This document shows, one piece after another, positions 2,742 through 11,502 of a DNA stretch of 42,852 nucleotides. The stretch is from a bacterium. GTDB taxonomy: Bacteria > Bacillota_I > Bacilli_A > RF39 > UBA660. The position numbers were made by a program, and so were the translations under genes. The stretch lies in NCBI GenBank assembly GCA_030524925.1, contig JAUNFS010000006.1, positions 1 to 42,852 on the forward strand. The letters run 5' to 3'. How positions within the stretch are numbered: the first letter of the stretch is position 1; every line of letters begins with the position of its first letter. The notes beneath the pieces were generated by a model. The model had not been told where the DNA came from, ran no database searches, and saw only the letters and a program-made list of their open reading frames with translations.

Positions 2742-3281
2742 ATGAATAGATGTAAGTGGTGTAATTTAGATAATCTTTTATATGTTAAATATCATGATGA
2801 AGAATGGGGAGTATTAAATACTAGTGATGCTTATTTATTTGAAATGCTAATTTTAGAAAGTTTTCAGGCAGGACTTTCTTGGGAGTGTGTTTTAAATAAA
2901 AGAGAAGATTTTAGAAAAGCTTATGATAATTTTGATATTAATAAAGTAGTCAAGTATGATGAATATAAAGTACTGGAGTTATTGAGTAATGAAAAAATTA
3001 TAAGAAACAAATTAAAGATAAAGGCAAGCGTTAGTAATGCTAGAATTTTTAAGGACATTGTAAAAGAATATGGGAGTTTTTATGATTATTTGTGTTTATT
3101 TACTCAAGGAAATATTATAGTGGAATGTGATAAAACTACTAATTATTTGTCTGATCAGATATCTAAAGATTTAAAAAAGAGAGGAATGATTTTTGTGGGT
3201 TCTACAATTATATATTCTTTTTTACAAGCAATAGGAGTTATCAATTCTCATGAAGATGGATGTTTTTTACATAAAAAATAA
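2742..3281 (+). CDS. tag: DNA-3-methyladenine glycosylase I
   Basis: RCxW...YHDEEWG, LESFQAGLSW, IIRNKLKI, FVGSTIIYSFLQAIG, HxxGC. Confidence 0.95.
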   Translation: MNRCKWCNLDNLLYVKYHDEEWGVLNTSDAYLFEMLILESFQAGLSWECVLNKREDFRKAYDNFDINKVVKYDEYKVLELLSNEKIIRNKLKIKASVSNARIFKDIVKEYGSFYDYLCLFTQGNIIVECDKTTNYLSDQISKDLKKRGMIFVGSTIIYSFLQAIGVINSHEDGCFLHKK

Positions 3282-3305
3282 TTAATTGCATTAATAGTTA
3301 TAAAG

Positions 3306-5777
3306 GTGATAGAAATGAATAAAGAATTAGAAGGGGTTTTTGAAGAATATAATGGTTTAAGTGAAGAAGAGGTTTTAAATTTAAGAGAAAATTATGGTGA
3401 GAATGTTTTAAAGCCTAAGAAAAAGCTACCTTTCATTTTTAGACTGCTAGCAGTTTTTAAAGAGCCAATGTTTTTACTTTTAATTATTACAGCAAGTGTA
3501 TATTTTATTGTTGGTGAGTATGCAGATGGCTGTTTAATGTTAGTTTTTGTTGTGGTAATTTCTATGATATCTTTTTTTCAAGAAAATAAGACAGAAAAAG
3601 CGTTAGAAGAACTTAGTAAGTTATCAGCAATTAATGTTAAAGTAATTAGAAATAAAATGGTAAAAACAGTTTCTAGTGAAGAATTAGTAGTTGGAGATTT
3701 GGTTATATTAGAAGAGGGAGACAGTGTCCCAGCTGATGGGATATTACTTTATGCGGAAGGTTTAGGCGTTAATGAGGCAATGCTTACTGGAGAATCTGCA
3801 GTTGTTTATAAAAACATTTTAGAAGATGATAAGAATCATTTTAAATTAAATATGGTCTATTCTGGAACTAGCGTAGTTGGTGGAGTAGGACTATTTAAAG
3901 TTAGTAGTGTTGGTACTATGACAGAAATTGGTAAGATTGGTTCTGAACTTGAAGAAATAAAAAAAGGAAAGAGTCCTTTAACAAAACAAGTAAATAAACT
4001 AGTTTATGTATGTACAATTATAAGTGTTTTAATTTGTGTTTTTACGATGATTATTAACTTTATTAATTTAGGAGATTTGAGTCTTAAAGAAAGAATTATA
4101 GAATCTATTTTAGCTGGCATTACAATAGCAATGGCAACAATACCGGAAGAAATACCAGTAATACTTACGGTGTTTTTAGCATTAGGAGCGTCTGGTCTTG
4201 CGAAAGAAAAAACACTTGTTAAGAATTTAAATGCTACTGAAACACTTGGTGCTATAAATGTATTATGTACTGATAAAACCGGGACATTAACTCAAAATAA
4301 AATGGATGTGGCTTTTGCTTATGAGAATAGTAAGTCTTTTGGTGAAAGTGCTGTTAGAGCTTCTTTAAAAATTTCAATTGATCCGATGGAAAAGGCAATA
4401 AAAAAGTATTTTAGTAATGTAAAGATTAAGCCCTTGGAGGTTTTAAGAGAATATCCTTTTTCTAATGTATCTAAAATGATGGGGATACTTTGGGCTGATG
4501 GGGTACTTTGTATAAAAGGGGCTTATGAAAGCGTGCTACCACTTTGCAAGATGACTGATGAACTTTATAAAAAGATGGTTAAAGATATTACTCATTACAT
4601 GAATGATGGATATAGAGTATTGGCAGTTGCTAGAGCTAGTAATGTTAAAGATAGTATAAATAATCTTAGTGATGTATCTTATGATTTTGAAGGTTTTATT
4701 GTTTTAGAAGATCCACCAAGAAAGAATGTATATAAGTCAGTGATGGCATGTAATAATGCTGGAATTAGGGTAATTATGATTACTGGTGATAATGGAAGTA
4801 CAGCACTTGGAATAGCTAATAAAATTGGTTTAATTAACAATGGCCATGTAATAACAGGTGAAGAACTAGAAAAAATGAACGATGATGAGTTGTTTATTAG
4901 TGTGCAGAATACAAATATTTTTGCAAGAGTTTATCCAAGTCATAAGATGAGAATAGTTGAAGCACTGCAAAAGAATAATAATGTAGTTGCTATGACAGGT
5001 GATGGAGTAAATGACGCGTCTGCTTTAAAGAAGGCTGATGTAGGAATTGCGATGGGATTAAGAGGTACTAATGTATCAAAAGAAGCAGCTGATATTATAA
5101 TTTTAGATGATAATTTTAATACAATTGTTAAAGGCGTATTTGATGCAAGAGGAATTTATAAAAATATTAAAAAAGCAATATCTTATATTTTTGTTATTCA
5201 TATACCAATAGCGCTCTTATCACTATTTGTTCCGCTTTTTAACTTACCACTGTTGTTAAAACCAATTCATATTCTTTTATTAGAATTACTTATTGATCCA
5301 ACGTCGTCAATTATTTTTCAAAGAATTAAAAATAGTAAGGATATTATGTATGAAAAACCTAGAAAGAAAGATGAAAATATTATTCATAGAAAAACAGTTG
5401 TAAGAAGTGTAGCTCAGGGTTTATTAATTTTCTTGGTAACTTTTTTAAATTATTATTTATTAATTCATTTAAATGTTATCACTAACAAAGCAATTACGAT
5501 AACTTATAGTACTTTAGTTTTGTCAATAATATTAGTTTCTTTTCAGCTTCGTACTTTAGATTCAACGTTTAAAACATTAGCTAATGCTTTAAAAGATAAA
5601 ACAGTTTTGATTGTTAATTTGGTTATAATTATGGGATTAATTTTGCTTGTTTATTTACCATATTTTAATAAGGTAGCTAATACAATGCCACTTAATATTT
5701 TAGAGTGGGGATATGTAGTTTGCATGGCAATAATATGTGTTGTTCCTTTTGATTTATTTAAGAAAAAGATTAAATAG
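3306..5777 (+). CDS. Cation-transporting P-type ATPase (Ca2+-type-like)
   Basis: TGES, PEEIP, DKTGT, MITGD, TGDGVND motifs and multiple TM segments. Confidence 0.93.
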   Translation: MIEMNKELEGVFEEYNGLSEEEVLNLRENYGENVLKPKKKLPFIFRLLAVFKEPMFLLLIITASVYFIVGEYADGCLMLVFVVVISMISFFQENKTEKALEELSKLSAINVKVIRNKMVKTVSSEELVVGDLVILEEGDSVPADGILLYAEGLGVNEAMLTGESAVVYKNILEDDKNHFKLNMVYSGTSVVGGVGLFKVSSVGTMTEIGKIGSELEEIKKGKSPLTKQVNKLVYVCTIISVLICVFTMIINFINLGDLSLKERIIESILAGITIAMATIPEEIPVILTVFLALGASGLAKEKTLVKNLNATETLGAINVLCTDKTGTLTQNKMDVAFAYENSKSFGESAVRASLKISIDPMEKAIKKYFSNVKIKPLEVLREYPFSNVSKMMGILWADGVLCIKGAYESVLPLCKMTDELYKKMVKDITHYMNDGYRVLAVARASNVKDSINNLSDVSYDFEGFIVLEDPPRKNVYKSVMACNNAGIRVIMITGDNGSTALGIANKIGLINNGHVITGEELEKMNDDELFISVQNTNIFARVYPSHKMRIVEALQKNNNVVAMTGDGVNDASALKKADVGIAMGLRGTNVSKEAADIIILDDNFNTIVKGVFDARGIYKNIKKAISYIFVIHIPIALLSLFVPLFNLPLLLKPIHILLLELLIDPTSSIIFQRIKNSKDIMYEKPRKKDENIIHRKTVVRSVAQGLLIFLVTFLNYYLLIHLNVITNKAITITYSTLVLSIILVSFQLRTLDSTFKTLANALKDKTVLIVNLVIIMGLILLVYLPYFNKVANTMPLNILEWGYVVCMAIICVVPFDLFKKKIK

Positions 5778-5837
5778 TTATATTGTTTTTTAGGGTTAAG
5801 TATGCTAAAATTATTTTAGAATAGGAAGGTGTAGTTT

Positions 5838-7304
5838 GTGAAAAAATATTTATTATTTGCATTTTTATTGTTACTTCCTTGCAAGGTTTTGGCTTTTGCA
5901 TTTGATTGTCCTAGTTCAGTAACTAGTGGAGAAGAGATAAGATGCACAATTATACCGGGAGATAACCTAAATAAAATAAATGGTAATGTTGGATTTGATG
6001 ATGCGTTAGTTTTTTATGGAATATCAGGTAGCGGATTTACAAATGTAAGTAGTGGAACAAGCGTTACTTTAAATAGTGTTAAAACAAATGCAGAGATTTA
6101 TTTGAAATTTAAAGCACCAAGTGTTACTACAAAAAAAGAGTATGCGATAACATTTACAAATTTTTCGTATGTTACTGGAGATAATCGGACAAATCTTTAT
6201 GAAGCAAAATTATTTAAAGTAAATGTTGTTCCTAAGACAACAACCACAACTACAACAAAAGCAAGCGTTTTTAAAATCACTTTTGATGCTAATGGTGGAA
6301 CTGGGACTTTTAATGAATTATCTTGTACTAGCAAAAATGGAGTTTGTAATGTTGATTTAAGTAGTGTAGGAGTTCCTGTTAAAGATGGTTTTACATTTAA
6401 TGGCTGGGGAACTGTTAGAAGTTGTACTACTTCTGGGAATAAGAATGTTTATAAGGCTAAAAAGAGTACGACTTTATATGCTTGTTATACAAAAAATGGT
6501 GATACAACTACAACGACCACGACTACAAAAGTAACAACTACTACTAAGACAACGTCTACGACTACAGCTAAGACTGATATAAAATTATATTTAAAAGATT
6601 TAAGTGTTGAAGGTCAAAATATTGATTTTAGTAAGTTTAAAACAAATTATGAAATTAAGGTTTTATATGAGGTTGAAAGTATTAAAATTAATGCTGAAGC
6701 AGCTAGCGAGGGTATAAATACTGATTATCAAAATGAAGTAAATTTAGAAGTTGGTGAAAATGAAATCCCAATTACGCTTAGTGATGGGACGACTTCATCA
6801 GTTTATACTTTAAAGGTAATAAGGCTTAAAGAAGGCGAAGAAATTAAAGATGCTTCTAATGATGCTACTTTAAAGTCTTTAGTACTTACTGGTTATAATA
6901 TTGGATTTAATTCTACAGTAACAAGTTATGAACTAACTGTTAAATATAACGTTAGCAATATTGAGGTAAAAGCTACACCTAATGATGAGAATGCTAAGTT
7001 TGTTATTACTGGTAATAGTGATATTGCAAATGGAAGTGTTATAAAAGTTGATGTGCAGGCTGAAGATGGAACACTTATGTCTTACAAAATAAATATTGTA
7101 AAGCAAAACTTTTTTCAGACTTATAAAAATTATTTTTTAATGGGTGCAGGAGCGGTATTACTTATTTTAATAATTTTAATTATTGTTGATAAGAAGAAAA
7201 AAGTAAAAAAAATACCGAAAACTACTGTTGTAAAGAAATCAAGTAATATTAAATCTAGTGGTTCTAGCAATAAATCAAATGGAGTTGAAGTTTTAAAGAT
7301 GTAA
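5838..7304 (+). CDS. Membrane-anchored surface protein with an InlB B-repeat-like domain, cadherin-like beta-sandwich domains and Thr-rich linkers
   Basis: Signal peptide, ITFDANGG...GFTFNGW repeat, SNDATLKSL...VQAEDG cadherin-like motif, C-terminal TM with a basic tail. Confidence 0.75.
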   Translation: MKKYLLFAFLLLLPCKVLAFAFDCPSSVTSGEEIRCTIIPGDNLNKINGNVGFDDALVFYGISGSGFTNVSSGTSVTLNSVKTNAEIYLKFKAPSVTTKKEYAITFTNFSYVTGDNRTNLYEAKLFKVNVVPKTTTTTTTKASVFKITFDANGGTGTFNELSCTSKNGVCNVDLSSVGVPVKDGFTFNGWGTVRSCTTSGNKNVYKAKKSTTLYACYTKNGDTTTTTTTTKVTTTTKTTSTTTAKTDIKLYLKDLSVEGQNIDFSKFKTNYEIKVLYEVESIKINAEAASEGINTDYQNEVNLEVGENEIPITLSDGTTSSVYTLKVIRLKEGEEIKDASNDATLKSLVLTGYNIGFNSTVTSYELTVKYNVSNIEVKATPNDENAKFVITGNSDIANGSVIKVDVQAEDGTLMSYKINIVKQNFFQTYKNYFLMGAGAVLLILIILIIVDKKKKVKKIPKTTVVKKSSNIKSSGSSNKSNGVEVLKM

Positions 7305-7309
7305 TGTTT

Positions 7310-7333
7310 GAAAGATGAGAAATCATCTTTTTT
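7310..7333 (+). terminator. Intrinsic terminator
   Basis: AAAGATGA-GAAA-TCATCTTT followed by Ts. Confidence 0.75.
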
Positions 7334-7426
7334 GTATGGTAAAAAATAATATTTGAGCTGTCCTATTTTTGACAAAGTGAAAAATTTCTAGAAGCAACTT
7401 CTCGTCAGAGTTTTCCACACTCCTAG

Positions 7427-7454
7427 TTGACACGGGGGGGGGTTGTTATATAAT
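7427..7454 (+). promoter_or_regulatory. Consensus SigA promoter with a G9 tract in a 16-bp spacer
   Basis: TTGACA (7427-7432), G9 (7434-7442), TATAAT (7449-7454). Confidence 0.85.
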
Positions 7455-7477
7455 AAAAGAAGAAAATAGGTGGTAGA

Positions 7478-9712
7478 GTGATAAAAAAATATAGGAAACG
7501 CATACTAATTCTGGCGTGTTTGCTACTGATAACCGTGCTTCTAGCCGGGGTATCTTATGCTGTGTTTAATAGTTATGCATCTCAAAATAGTACTAATACA
7601 TTAGCGGCAACTTGTATAGAACTAGAATTTAGTGGAGAAGATTCAGTTAATTTAATAAATGTATATCCAATAAGTGATAGTGAGGGATTAAAAACTACGC
7701 CATATAAATTTAAAATAAAAAACAAGTGTAAGAACTATTTAGAATATATGGTGATAGCTTCAGCAATAAATATTACTAATCCCTTAGATTCAAAATATGT
7801 AAAAGTAAATTTAAGTGGAGATAATGAAATGGAACCAGTGTCACTATCATCATTAAAATCTATCCAAACACCATCTTCATTATCAGGTTATAGTATTAAG
7901 GAAAATTATGTATTGAAAGATAATGATGGAATACTAAAAGATGAAGAGAGAAACTTTGAATTTAGAATGTGGTTAGATGGAGAAAATGAAGAGACTTGGA
8001 CAAGTGAACAGGTAGAAAGTAAAAACTATCAAGTAAAAATATCTGTAATTGGTACAGTAAAAATTGAACCAAAGAGTGATATATATATAGCAGCTTTAAT
8101 AGATGGAGAGGAAAGTCTTACATTTCCAACAACAGCCGATTATATGGCAAAAGTAAACTGTACTAGAGGCGGTAAAAAGGTAGATACAAATGCGAGTATA
8201 AAGTGGACAGGTGCAAGATGGGCACTAACTACAACTATTACTGATGGTAATACTAGGTGTAATGTTTCTTTTGTTGCGGAACCGGCTCCAGATGGTTGGT
8301 ATGCTGCTGAAGATGGGACACTACTTGCGGCAATAAAAAGCGATAATGAATTAGAGCCAACTATAACAACGCCAGGGACAGCGACAAGTTATAGCTTAGC
8401 AGATAAAATACCAGATTGGATATTTAATGTGGATGCATATTATACATATGGAGATACATATAAAGTGAATAGTGATGGGACGTATACTATTGAAAATCCA
8501 AAGAAGATAAAATATAGTGATGAATTAAGTATTTTAAAGGGAAAGTATATGGTTAGTTCACAAGATAATTATTCAGATGCTTTTTCTTCTAATGATGAAT
8601 TACTTGATACCACAAATAAGAAACAATTACTGTTGATTAGAGATACGGCTAGTGATGGTTTTACGTATAGTAAAATATCTGGTGGAATGAAAACTTTTCC
8701 TAAAGAAACTGAAGCAGTAATGGCTACTACGGCAGATGATTATGGGACTTCATATTACTTTAGAGGTGCTGTTGAAAATAATTATATAGAGTTTGCTAAT
8801 AAGTGCTGGAGAATAGTAAGAGTAACCGGTAATGGTTCAATAAAACTGGCACTATTTAATAATAATGCGAATAGTAGTACTAATCCATGTGCGGAAGTTA
8901 ATGATAGTAAAGAGGCTGCTACTGTGGGGTCAAGTATGTTTAATTATGCTCATGGTGATAATGCTTTTGTTGGATTTATGTATGGAAATGCTGGTTGTTC
9001 TAATGGAACCTCAATTAATAAAAATGAATGTACCAGTGCTGGAGGCACGTGGAACGCTTCAACGTCATATGCAAATGCGCAGGCCAATGTTAATAAAAGT
9101 ACAATATTAAAGTATTTAGAAGAGTGGTATAATAATAATTTAGCTAGTTATGATAGTTATATAGCAGATACTATATGGTGTAATGATAAGAGTACAGTAA
9201 AAGATACGTCATTTAATCCATGGGGATGGACGCTAGGAACGAATTATGGATATGGGTTTAATTCAAATTATTATAGTGCTAATAAAAGATTGCTGCAGAA
9301 TGATGAGTATGGGTTAATGCTTGCTGGTAATCCATCGCTAATTTGTCCAAATGATAATAATGGAGGAAAGTTATCTAAGTTTACAGTAAGCGATACCACT
9401 AATGGCAATGGAAATTTAGATAAAAAGATTGGATTACTTACTGCTGATGAAGTAGTGTTTGCGGGAGGTGGTGAGGTAAATTACAGCTTTTATTTAATAA
9501 AAAATACTTATACGTGGTGGTGGACTATGTCTCCTGGTGATCTAGGAAATGTTGGAACTAGTATGTGGGGAGTAAGTGGCGACCACAGTATTGTTGGTAT
9601 TTATCTTACTATACGAAGCAGAGCTGTAAGGCCATCAATATCACTAGTTTCTACAGTGCGAGTCACATCGGGAAATGGAACTAGAAATAATCCTTATAAA
9701 ATAACTGTATAA
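7478..9712 (+). CDS. Exported or N-anchored surface protein with a C-terminal WWxxSP...VRP (CLec-like) domain; paralog of the 40990 gene
   Basis: N-terminal hydrophobic helix ending SYA, YYFRG...WRIVR, IGLLTADE, WWTMSP...AVRPSISL...GNGTxxNPY. Confidence 0.8.
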   Translation: MIKKYRKRILILACLLLITVLLAGVSYAVFNSYASQNSTNTLAATCIELEFSGEDSVNLINVYPISDSEGLKTTPYKFKIKNKCKNYLEYMVIASAINITNPLDSKYVKVNLSGDNEMEPVSLSSLKSIQTPSSLSGYSIKENYVLKDNDGILKDEERNFEFRMWLDGENEETWTSEQVESKNYQVKISVIGTVKIEPKSDIYIAALIDGEESLTFPTTADYMAKVNCTRGGKKVDTNASIKWTGARWALTTTITDGNTRCNVSFVAEPAPDGWYAAEDGTLLAAIKSDNELEPTITTPGTATSYSLADKIPDWIFNVDAYYTYGDTYKVNSDGTYTIENPKKIKYSDELSILKGKYMVSSQDNYSDAFSSNDELLDTTNKKQLLLIRDTASDGFTYSKISGGMKTFPKETEAVMATTADDYGTSYYFRGAVENNYIEFANKCWRIVRVTGNGSIKLALFNNNANSSTNPCAEVNDSKEAATVGSSMFNYAHGDNAFVGFMYGNAGCSNGTSINKNECTSAGGTWNASTSYANAQANVNKSTILKYLEEWYNNNLASYDSYIADTIWCNDKSTVKDTSFNPWGWTLGTNYGYGFNSNYYSANKRLLQNDEYGLMLAGNPSLICPNDNNGGKLSKFTVSDTTNGNGNLDKKIGLLTADEVVFAGGGEVNYSFYLIKNTYTWWWTMSPGDLGNVGTSMWGVSGDHSIVGIYLTIRSRAVRPSISLVSTVRVTSGNGTRNNPYKITV

Positions 9713-9784
9713 TTTATGAGTAAAATGTAATAACTTTACATTTTTTCTTTTTTTTGTTAAGATTTTTTTAGGAGTGATGCGGGG

Positions 9785-10552
9785 ATGGGAAGAAAATATT
9801 TTTTAGCGTATTATGCTGATAATGAGAATTATGTTGCAATAGATTTAAAGAAACTTCCTTATTTTAGTGGAAGGAATGCTGGTAATGCTTATGATATTAT
9901 TAGTTTTTATAATGAGTTTGATGATCAGCAAGATTTGTTTCTTTATTTAAGACAAAAGGGGTTAATTCCAAGAAATACGGAGGAAATATGTTTGTGTATG
10001 CAGCAAAAGAATCAAAATGGAAGTACGACTTTGAAAGCTTTGCCACATAGCGAAGAACCTTTAGTAAAATCTAGTTCTAAATTTTTTAGAAAAGATTATC
10101 TTATTGATTATTTAAGAAAAAATTTATTAGATAATAAATTTGTGGATGCTGTAAGAAGAGAGTTTGGTTTTTATCGTATTTATGAGTATGACGGAATTAG
10201 TTTAGAGTCTTGCTTAAATAATATTGTTTATTTTAATAATTTAAAAAAGGGGCATAATTTGGATAATGCTAGTGCAACAGAATTAGAACATAAAATTGAT
10301 ATGGTTGTAGTTGGTTTGACTAACGGGGTAAAAACATTTATTACTACGGCACTATTTTGTAATTATTATGCTGGGTTAGGAAAGCATGGACCAGTTAGTA
10401 AAGATGAAGTACGGGATGTAAGTTATGATAGTGAAGAGTTTTTGGAGTTAAATGATATAGTAAAGTATAATGTAGGTTTATCTGGTAAGGCGTTAGAAGA
10501 AGCTTTAGAAGATGAAGAACTTGCAAGTGAAAAGGTATCTAAGAAATTTTAG
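9785..10552 (+). CDS. Hypothetical protein
   Basis: 255 aa ORF with RBS; no recognised motif. Confidence 0.7.
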   Translation: MGRKYFLAYYADNENYVAIDLKKLPYFSGRNAGNAYDIISFYNEFDDQQDLFLYLRQKGLIPRNTEEICLCMQQKNQNGSTTLKALPHSEEPLVKSSSKFFRKDYLIDYLRKNLLDNKFVDAVRREFGFYRIYEYDGISLESCLNNIVYFNNLKKGHNLDNASATELEHKIDMVVVGLTNGVKTFITTALFCNYYAGLGKHGPVSKDEVRDVSYDSEEFLELNDIVKYNVGLSGKALEEALEDEELASEKVSKKF

Positions 10553-10611
10553 ATATTTTTTTATTGAACAATTTTTTCTTTATATTGTATAATTTAAGTG
10601 GTAGTGATGAT

Positions 10612-11502
10612 ATGAAAGATAATATTAATAAATTTTTAGATTATATTGCTTATGAGAGAAAATATTCGGATAAAACTGTTAGAAGTTATGAAAATGATTT
10701 ATATAAGTTAGAAAATTTTTTAAACAAAAAGAAACTTAATTATTTACATTTAGAATATGAAAATGTTAGTGAGTTTTTGATGTTTTTGCAAAAGAGTGGG
10801 TATAAGAGTGGGTCAATAAATAGAATGATTAGTGCATCAAGGTCTTTTTATAATTATTTGATGCTTTCTGATATAGTAAATGATAATCCTTTTATGTTAG
10901 TTTCTAATTTAAAAAGAGAAAAGATGCTTCCTACATATTTTACTTATAATGATTTTGAGAAGATGTTAGATAGTGTTACTTTGGATGATGAATTAAGTGT
11001 AAGAAATAGATTAATTTTAGAACTACTACTAGCGACAGGAACAAGAGTTAGCGAACTTGCAAATATTAAGATTAGTGATATAGATTTTAAAAATAATGAA
11101 ATTAAGATTTTTGGTAAGGGTAGTAAAGAACGAGTGGTATTTTTTGGAAATCACGCTAGAGAAAAGATGTATTATTATTTAAAAGATGCTAGGCCAAAGC
11201 TTTTAAATGGGAAGTTTAGTGAGTTTTTATTTATAAATGATAAGGGAGGAAGACTTACTGATAGAGGGGTAAGATTTATTATTGATAATATAATGAAGAA
11301 ATGTCAGTTAAAAGTAAAGGTTACTCCACATGTTTTTCGTCATACTTTTGCGACGATGCTTTTAAATGAGGGATGTGACGTTAGAAGTGTCCAGGAGCTA
11401 CTTGGACATGAAAATTTAGGTACTACAAGTATATACACTCATTTGACTAATGAAACTATTAGAAAGACATATTTAAATGCACATCCTCATGGAAAACGCT
11501 AG
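10612..11502 (+). CDS. xerC: XerC/XerD-family tyrosine recombinase (ATG 10612 preferred over 10564)
   Basis: TGTRVSEL, GKGSKER, TPHVFRHTFAT, VQELLGH, TTSIYTH catalytic set and an N-terminal SAM-like domain. Confidence 0.85.
   Translation: MKDNINKFLDYIAYERKYSDKTVRSYENDLYKLENFLNKKKLNYLHLEYENVSEFLMFLQKSGYKSGSINRMISASRSFYNYLMLSDIVNDNPFMLVSNLKREKMLPTYFTYNDFEKMLDSVTLDDELSVRNRLILELLLATGTRVSELANIKISDIDFKNNEIKIFGKGSKERVVFFGNHAREKMYYYLKDARPKLLNGKFSEFLFINDKGGRLTDRGVRFIIDNIMKKCQLKVKVTPHVFRHTFATMLLNEGCDVRSVQELLGHENLGTTSIYTHLTNETIRKTYLNAHPHGKR

Follow-up and report, generated by a model that had tools for sequence, protein, structure and literature searches.

A G9 tract in the promoter spacer of a putative surface-protein gene from an uncultured gut bacterium: a candidate phase-variable promoter within a portable cassette

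The poly-G promoter and its gene

The window, the whole 42,852-base stretch of DNA analysed here, is contig C16 of assembly G000 (905 kb in 38 contigs, 29% G+C, rated 85% complete). It carries on its forward strand a gene with a GTG start (7478–9712) whose 744-residue product belongs to no named family. Directly upstream, reading of the sequence and a consensus scan place a consensus −35 hexamer, TTGACA (7427–7432), and a consensus −10 hexamer, TATAAT (7449–7454), on either side of a 16-bp spacer (7433–7448) made up of C7433, nine consecutive Gs (7434–7442) and TTGTTA (7443–7448), exactly the arrangement that the original prediction had described over 7427–7454. This G9 homopolymer is the length-variable element of the promoter, being represented by runs of G4 to G10 in other copies of the same cassette. 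The short conserved leader that follows (7455–7477) includes the ribosome-binding site AGGTGGT (7468–7474), which lies between TATAAT and the GTG start 23 nt after it, and transcription would be expected to begin at about position 7461. A further conserved motif, AGTTTTCCACA (7409–7419), is situated 7 nt 5' of the −35 box and is present in all six cassette copies that reach that far.

Among 20 promoter-like sites returned by the consensus scan between 6800 and 10000, the poly-G promoter is the sole 12/12 match; shuffled sequence yielded 17.4 sites on average, counting matches of every quality. On either strand of the window, runs of G7 or longer amount to this one G9 (three overlapping matches), compared with a mean of 0.32 matches in window shuffles, of which 1 in 100 reached three. 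With no second G or C run of at least 7 on either strand, the G9 tract is unique in the window, in line with the original prediction. The paralog near 40990, described in the original prediction as having an ordinary 17-bp spacer, does indeed read by eye as TTGAAA (40912–40917), a 17-bp spacer without a G run and TATAAT (40935–40940). A search of positions 7000–7800 against Rfam matched no RNA element at E up to 1. Within AGTTTTCCACA, a 9-mer is one mismatch from the DnaA-box consensus; TTTTCCACA occurs 23 times genome-wide, six of these in cassettes, against about 11 estimated from base composition, and we left the DnaA-box reading as a curiosity. On C21, near 4127 on the minus strand, the replication origin may be marked by a TTATCCACA/TTTTCCACA pair.

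The gene is flanked by two terminator-like hairpins. The one after the upstream gene (7312–7333; 7-bp stem, GAAA loop and T run) was not listed by our hairpin scan because it is AT-rich and the scan requires three G-C pairs, while the one after the gene itself (9722–9756) is formed by AAAATGTA and TACATTTT and followed by a T run. Lying between these putative terminators, the gene looks monocistronic. Its upstream neighbor (5838–7304) has an ordinary promoter and encodes a 488-residue product, likely another surface protein: it combines a Listeria-Bacteroides repeat and cadherin-like beta-sandwich domains with poly-threonine linkers, and has a signal peptide as well as a hydrophobic anchor at its C-terminus. 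Two genes downstream lies a Xer-like tyrosine recombinase gene (10564–11502) whose product scores 313.6 bits against the XerC model (below the cut-off of 335) and 281.4 bits against PRK00283 (above the cut-off of 279). This recombinase is 90% conserved in the sister species G017, which lacks the poly-G module at this site (see below), so it is probably a housekeeping enzyme and not linked to a switch.

The 744-residue product has a K/R-rich N-terminus, one hydrophobic helix (residues 4–27 of the model), a GVSYAVF motif and beta-rich domains. Searches of Pfam and NCBIfam gave nothing above cut-off, and DUF6273 (PF19789), against which the relative P0102 scores 22.8 bits (cut-off 23.5), did not match the 744-residue protein at E up to 10. 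Unnamed homologs numbered 4,344 at E up to 0.001 among 7,999 scored candidates. The AlphaFold model of the product is beta-rich with a mean pLDDT of 59.3, and Foldseek against the PDB returned weak, generic matches to beta-sandwiches, pilins and adhesins with a query TM-score up to 0.15. Both the SipW-dependent signal model TIGR04088 (10.3 bits, cut-off 19) and the archaellin/pilin N-terminal model (14.9 bits, cut-off 20) scored below their cut-offs. The GVSYA-VF motif is reminiscent of the region in which the SipW-dependent signal peptides of proteins such as TasA and CalY are cleaved. The genome encodes two SipW-type signal peptidases on C34, each scoring 77.9 bits against TIGR02228 (cut-off 51.85), and these are candidates for processing the protein family; both are of the archaeal/SipW-type signal peptidase I class, and their genes (2945–3403 and 8898–9332; L053 and L054) lie 5.5 kb apart.

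These N-terminal features recur behind the poly-G promoter in relatives. In all 23 assessable loci of the genus the downstream protein opens with a K/R-rich segment and one hydrophobic helix, and the strict motif [ST][YF]A[FYWV][FYWI] was seen by eye in at least 11 of the 23. A motif of the form [ST][YF]A[FYL][FYW] was present in 8 of the 10 assessable loci among 12 further ones, 11 from other genera and one from G010 of the same genus. No lipobox cysteine is conserved in the family: the C26 paralog lacks the Cys found at residue 14 of the product. In the public gene call, P0001, the product comprises 725 residues, 19 fewer than the frame that starts from the GTG behind the conserved ribosome-binding site, so that most of the N-terminal helix is lost from the public call. 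The product had been predicted to be a surface protein. The N-terminal hydrophobic helix and the beta-rich domains agree with this and the family searches add no match, which makes a secreted or surface protein a plausible and reasonable reading of the sequence.

Gain, loss and exchange of modules

Alignment with G017 delimits a discrete unit at this locus. Window positions 3000–7305 align to G017:C26:3660–7950 at 88.7% and positions 9722–9880 to G017:C26:7941–8098 at 89.9%, with nothing between both blocks in G017. At the G017 junction the stop codon of the upstream gene runs directly into the hairpin that in the window comes after the 744-residue gene, and a 10-mer that is present twice in the window is present there once. 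The two copies in the window form a 10-bp direct repeat: the left copy, AAGATGTAAT (7296–7305), shares bases with the stop codon that ends the upstream gene, while the right copy, AAAATGTAAT (9722–9731), is identical to it at 9 of 10 positions. Because the intervening segment (7306–9721) is missing from the syntenic G017 site while the flanks are kept, the promoter-plus-gene unit is a module that has been gained or lost.

The gene's closest relative (85.7% nucleotide identity, likewise behind a G9 tract) lies at a different G017 locus, adjoining mutL. At the mutL-adjacent locus, the gene behind the same cassette is of type C in G000:C28 and of type A in G017:C27, and the downstream DNA is 94.8% identical; over G000:C28:1–6000 and G017:C27:1–6000 (L076), the 3' part of the gene shares 78–81% identity. 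Since homology is restricted to the 3' part and the downstream DNA, the 5' part of the gene appears to have been replaced by recombination. The position of the nearest relative at another locus, together with the different gene types beside mutL, indicates that modules or 5' gene parts have been exchanged between loci. In addition, the sequence upstream of one and the same gene falls into different classes in L012, L021 and L022.

A portable cassette with a variable G run

The assembly contains seven G or C runs of at least 7, six of which occupy this same promoter position, and ten of at least 6, of which seven do. Seven copies share the layout AGTTTTCCACA-(7 nt)-TTGACAC-Gn-TTGTTATATAAT-leader-AGGTGGT-start, and the genes behind them are dispersed over at least six contigs. 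Three copies have G9 and a 16-bp spacer (the window copy, C26 and one on C38), two have G7 and a 14-bp spacer (C24 and C28), and one is interrupted as G-A-G6 with a 15-bp spacer (C36). The second C38 copy has at least G7, the contig end falling inside the run. Type A and type B copies agree at 97–100% over the 35 nt after the run, and the type C copy (C28) has an indel there, whereas the coding sequences of these gene types fall to about 30% identity within 60–120 nt. Flanks so alike and coding sequences so unlike argue that promoter and leader make up a unit whose conservation does not depend on which gene it drives.

The blastp census recovered 31 paralogous open frames in the genome. The original prediction had proposed that other family members be scanned for the same promoter, and that scan places the cassette, with a G run of at least 6 within 90 nt upstream, before 7 of the 31; the remaining 24 have G3 at most over the same distance. 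The 31 paralogs, 416–744 residues in length, make up one secreted-protein superfamily that we estimate to occupy roughly 6% of the 0.9-Mb genome. An IS3-like element ends about 12 nt 5' of AGTTTTCCACA in C26 (26367–26407) and C28 (1–37), which accounts for the contig breaks there, the element being multi-copy, and most breaks near the cassette in this assembly have this origin. The opposite end of the element is seen at a further four contig ends, giving six contig ends for both ends together (C27, C32, C36 and C37 are among the contig ends involved). The body of the element is not in the assembly, while its orfA and orfB are visible in locus L012 at about 1000–2390 in cassette orientation.

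Run length varies across relatives as well. A scan of the genome collection for the exact cassette returned six stretches, of which five are real (four in G017, one in G015) and one, lacking any G run, matches by chance. The four exact copies of G017 have G8, G9, G9 and G4, and a fifth copy in that genome has the variant box TTGACGCGC followed by G9, with an 18-bp spacer. A metagenome scan returned 13 stretches, comprising three chance matches and ten real copies with G9 (four), G4 (two) and G5, G6, G8 and G10 (one each); four of these ten duplicate G017 copies and hence are not independent. Orthologs about 90% identical over 0.6–1 kb differ by one G in two of three groups (G8 versus G7, and G9/G9 versus G10), the third group being G9/G9/G9. 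The metagenome scan returned no near-identical copy of this locus, and the protein cluster of the 744-residue product has one member on one contig, the next best match being 83% identical over 42% of the query. Tract length thus differs between members of the cassette family (G4 to G10 within identical flanks), and this locus itself has no near-identical copy for comparison.

Searching the read archive identified four runs of one study, each with 0.18 of the sampled words, that contain a relative at about 90–96% identity. Its Logan contigs have G9 in the majority, with single contigs carrying one additional G (runs X1 and X4) or one G fewer (X4); because the cassette is multi-copy, these ±1 G contigs are not assignable to a locus. 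The bin containing the cassette reaches about 8 times the flank depth, contigs start or break inside the run, and assembled contigs drop rare variants. We consider the ±1 G contigs compatible with a switch and do not count them as support for it.

A looser pattern (TTGAC, 0–4 nt, G6 or more, 0–12 nt, TATAAT) was used to follow the cassette beyond close relatives. It is present in 15 of the 24 genomes of the genus at up to 30 copies per genome (30 in G010, 22 in G005, and 19 each in G004 and G009) and in 21 of 301 genomes of the order sample, with 43 copies in G116 and 38 in G240. Outside the family, 4 of 349 genomes of the class match, with a single copy each. The reversed pattern gave 0 in every genome of the genus, order and class scans. 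Some other genera have modal spacers of 12 bp (G135), 15 bp (G240), 19 bp (G063) and 20 bp (G233), of which the 12-, 19- and 20-bp modes are unexplained by a simple model of −35/−10 spacing. These odd geometries may reflect long runs that were collapsed or mis-assembled, or a different type of promoter. The apparent 12-bp spacer of G135 is seen on C15, C19, C26, C53 and C67, spacers of 20–21 bp occur in G233 with TGTTATAAT, and runs of G14–G17 fill nearly the whole spacer in G314 (C11, C12, C19, C25 and C29).

Spacer length, slippage and related systems

Spacer length is conserved within the genus. By a hand count from match lengths among the 144 copies listed outside G000 (31 further copies lie beyond these), 109 have a 16-bp spacer, the others having 15 bp (14 copies), 17 bp (12), 18 bp (3), 19 bp (3), 14 bp (1) and 13 bp (2). 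The 16-bp mode holds for G7, G8 and G9 variants, in which the non-G part of the spacer is 10, 8 and 7 nt, respectively. Total spacing that stays constant while the run varies indicates that the G run acts as an adjustable filler and supports spacer length as the functional variable. As 16 bp is the strongly preferred poly-G length in the genus, G9 represents the standard state of the family. Ordinary promoters of this genome that lack poly-G peak at 17 bp (6, 7, 21, 5 and 4 at 15, 16, 17, 18 and 19 bp with the pattern TTGAC[AT]...TA[TAC]AAT; reversed sequence gave 3, 5, 3, 2 and 5), placing the poly-G promoters one base below the general optimum.

The original prediction held that G10 would restore the optimal 17-bp spacing and that G8 would be weak or off. 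The first part agrees with the 17-bp peak of ordinary promoters, so that G10 may be stronger; the implied ranking of G9 has to be revised, since 16 bp is the poly-G norm in 109 of the 144 listed copies. The G9 state here is probably an expressing state and not a sub-threshold one, 16 bp being read as active because both hexamers are perfect. Spacers of 14–15 bp are read as weak or off, and the G7 copies, with 14 bp, are probably silent.

We assign a probability of about 0.7 to the reading that the G9 tract is the slippage-prone spacer of a phase-variable promoter within a portable promoter-plus-leader cassette. The promoter would be of the housekeeping-sigma type (sigma-70/sigma-A), with RNA polymerase presumably using the two hexamers described, and the cassette would be one that this bacterium and its relatives put before numerous members of a single large family encoding secreted or membrane-anchored proteins. 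Replication slippage would add or remove one G, altering the distance and angle between the −35 and −10 boxes and thereby raising or lowering transcription of the single downstream gene (7478–9712), and each family gene would switch independently of the others. A G run that varies within 97–100% identical flanks of the cassette, orthologs that differ by one G, and a design repeated up to 30 times argue for the phase-variable switch originally predicted, whereas for this locus itself there is no near-identical copy to compare. Rapid, reversible switching within populations and its effect on expression are what we infer from these sequence patterns. mutS is present in 24 of 24 genomes of the genus and mutL in 23 of 24, with both in G000, so there is no mutator background, a candidate explanation that we ruled out on these grounds.

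The main rival, owing to the uniform lengths within many genomes, treats the G run as a fixed design element of the cassette, a protein-binding or DNA-shape feature near the −35 box that spread by duplication and gene conversion and whose length drifts slowly, with no switching in populations. We regard it as unlikely. Spacers of 16 bp are found in 25 of 30 copies in G010, 18 of 22 in G005 and 10 of 12 in G016 (hand count), a uniformity equally expected of a fixed design and of a switch under selection; intact mismatch repair, the ortholog group that is invariant at G9 and the modal spacers of 12, 19 and 20 bp, which a spacing switch leaves unexplained, also favor a fixed element. A site of fixed length is difficult to reconcile, however, with a spacer total that stays at 16 bp with G7, G8 or G9, as expected of a length filler, and with runs of G4 to G10 in identical flanks in this genome and its sister. 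The A that interrupts one copy is what a locked run would be expected to look like, and homopolymers of 8 or more are intrinsically slippage-prone.

Still less probable is that the cassette serves mainly as a homology anchor for the recombination of modules or 5' gene parts, the G run being incidental. In favor of this reading are the module absent from G017 (7306–9721) and bounded by a 10-bp direct repeat, the type C and type A genes (G000:C28 and G017:C27) beside mutL with their 94.8% identical downstream DNA, and the gene found behind different upstream classes in L012, L021 and L022. An anchor gives no account, however, of why a G homopolymer always sits in the spacer across cassette variants that otherwise differ, and it could hold alongside the switch reading without displacing it; the cassette probably serves as a recombination anchor as well. 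We find it very improbable that the length differences are homopolymer errors of sequencing or assembly. Long G runs are error-prone on short-read platforms, five of the seven copies have a contig end no more than about 110 nt away, the run itself is cut by a contig end in one case, and Logan contigs too break at it. Yet most runs have assembled, conserved sequence on either side, the C26 and C28 breaks are explained by the end of the IS3-like element, differences of 2 to 5 G (G4, G5 and G7 versus G9) exceed usual miscalls, and independent assemblies agree.

Beyond the slippage-prone promoter itself, we can sketch a more speculative picture, possible although on balance doubtful, in which bacteria of this genome-reduced gut family run a genome-wide combinatorial dimmer. 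From 7 to about 40 portable poly-G modules per genome of about 1 Mb would each drive one member of a huge family of secreted proteins with TasA-like signal peptides and be held by selection one base short of 17 bp, so that a +1 slip would boost and a −1 or −2 slip would silence expression. Modules would be gained, lost and recombined between loci, and vlp-style surface variation would have evolved independently, with poly-G, in common commensals of the human gut.

The proposed mechanism has well-described counterparts. The opc gene carries a poly-C promoter tract of the same kind as that of porA. The porA gene of N. meningitidis has a poly-G tract between its −35 and −10 boxes and graded expression (11G > 10G > 9G), the surface level being high with 11G, about 2-fold lower with 10G and about 13-fold lower with 9G (PMC3639595). 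The promoter described here resembles porA in its G homopolymer between the −35 and −10 boxes, and the porA product is host-exposed. By contrast, porA is just one porin gene, in a Gram-negative pathogen, and its switching has been shown experimentally; here the element is a portable cassette with a modal spacer of 16 bp in an uncultured, Tenericutes-labelled gut bacterium, present at 7 genes in this genome and at up to 30–43 in relatives.

Homopolymers also lie in the promoters of the vlp surface-protein family of M. hyorhinis. Similarly, each of the M. bovoculi paralogs vpbA–E has its own homopolymer promoter, which was read as independent, combinatorial phase variation (PMC3931370). The present family is like the Mycoplasma families in having paralogs with their own homopolymer promoters in small-genome, host-associated relatives. 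The Mycoplasma tracts are poly-T or poly-A and precede lipoprotein genes in one array, whereas here sense-strand poly-G precedes dispersed genes, no lipobox cysteine is conserved and the cassette is found at only 7 of 31 paralogs. Poly-G upstream of the tpr paralogs, which encode outer-membrane proteins, affects transcription in Treponema pallidum; the placement upstream of paralogs is as here, and the host of that system is a spirochaete pathogen. In gut commensals, invertons switch surface structures on and off stochastically, and these elements need promoter-flanking inverted repeats and an invertase, whereas only weak, AT-rich inverted pairs are found here. We rejected an inverton at this locus, as all 21 inverted pairs in 6900–10700 are AT-rich and 70–93% complementary and none closely brackets the promoter.

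A limited literature search found no report of this system. We conclude that a known mechanism of the porA/vlp type is extended to a new lineage, with no new principle involved, and that the switch interpretation is right in kind and unproven at this locus. Metagenome assemblies of these organisms are affected in how they are read, given that contigs break at the poly-G sites. The interest lies mainly in the scale of the system in a common uncultured gut lineage: if the interpretation is true, common uncultured gut bacteria with small genomes would vary their exposed proteins cell by cell, as mucosal pathogens do, and this would be relevant to their survival in the face of IgA, phages and differences among hosts.
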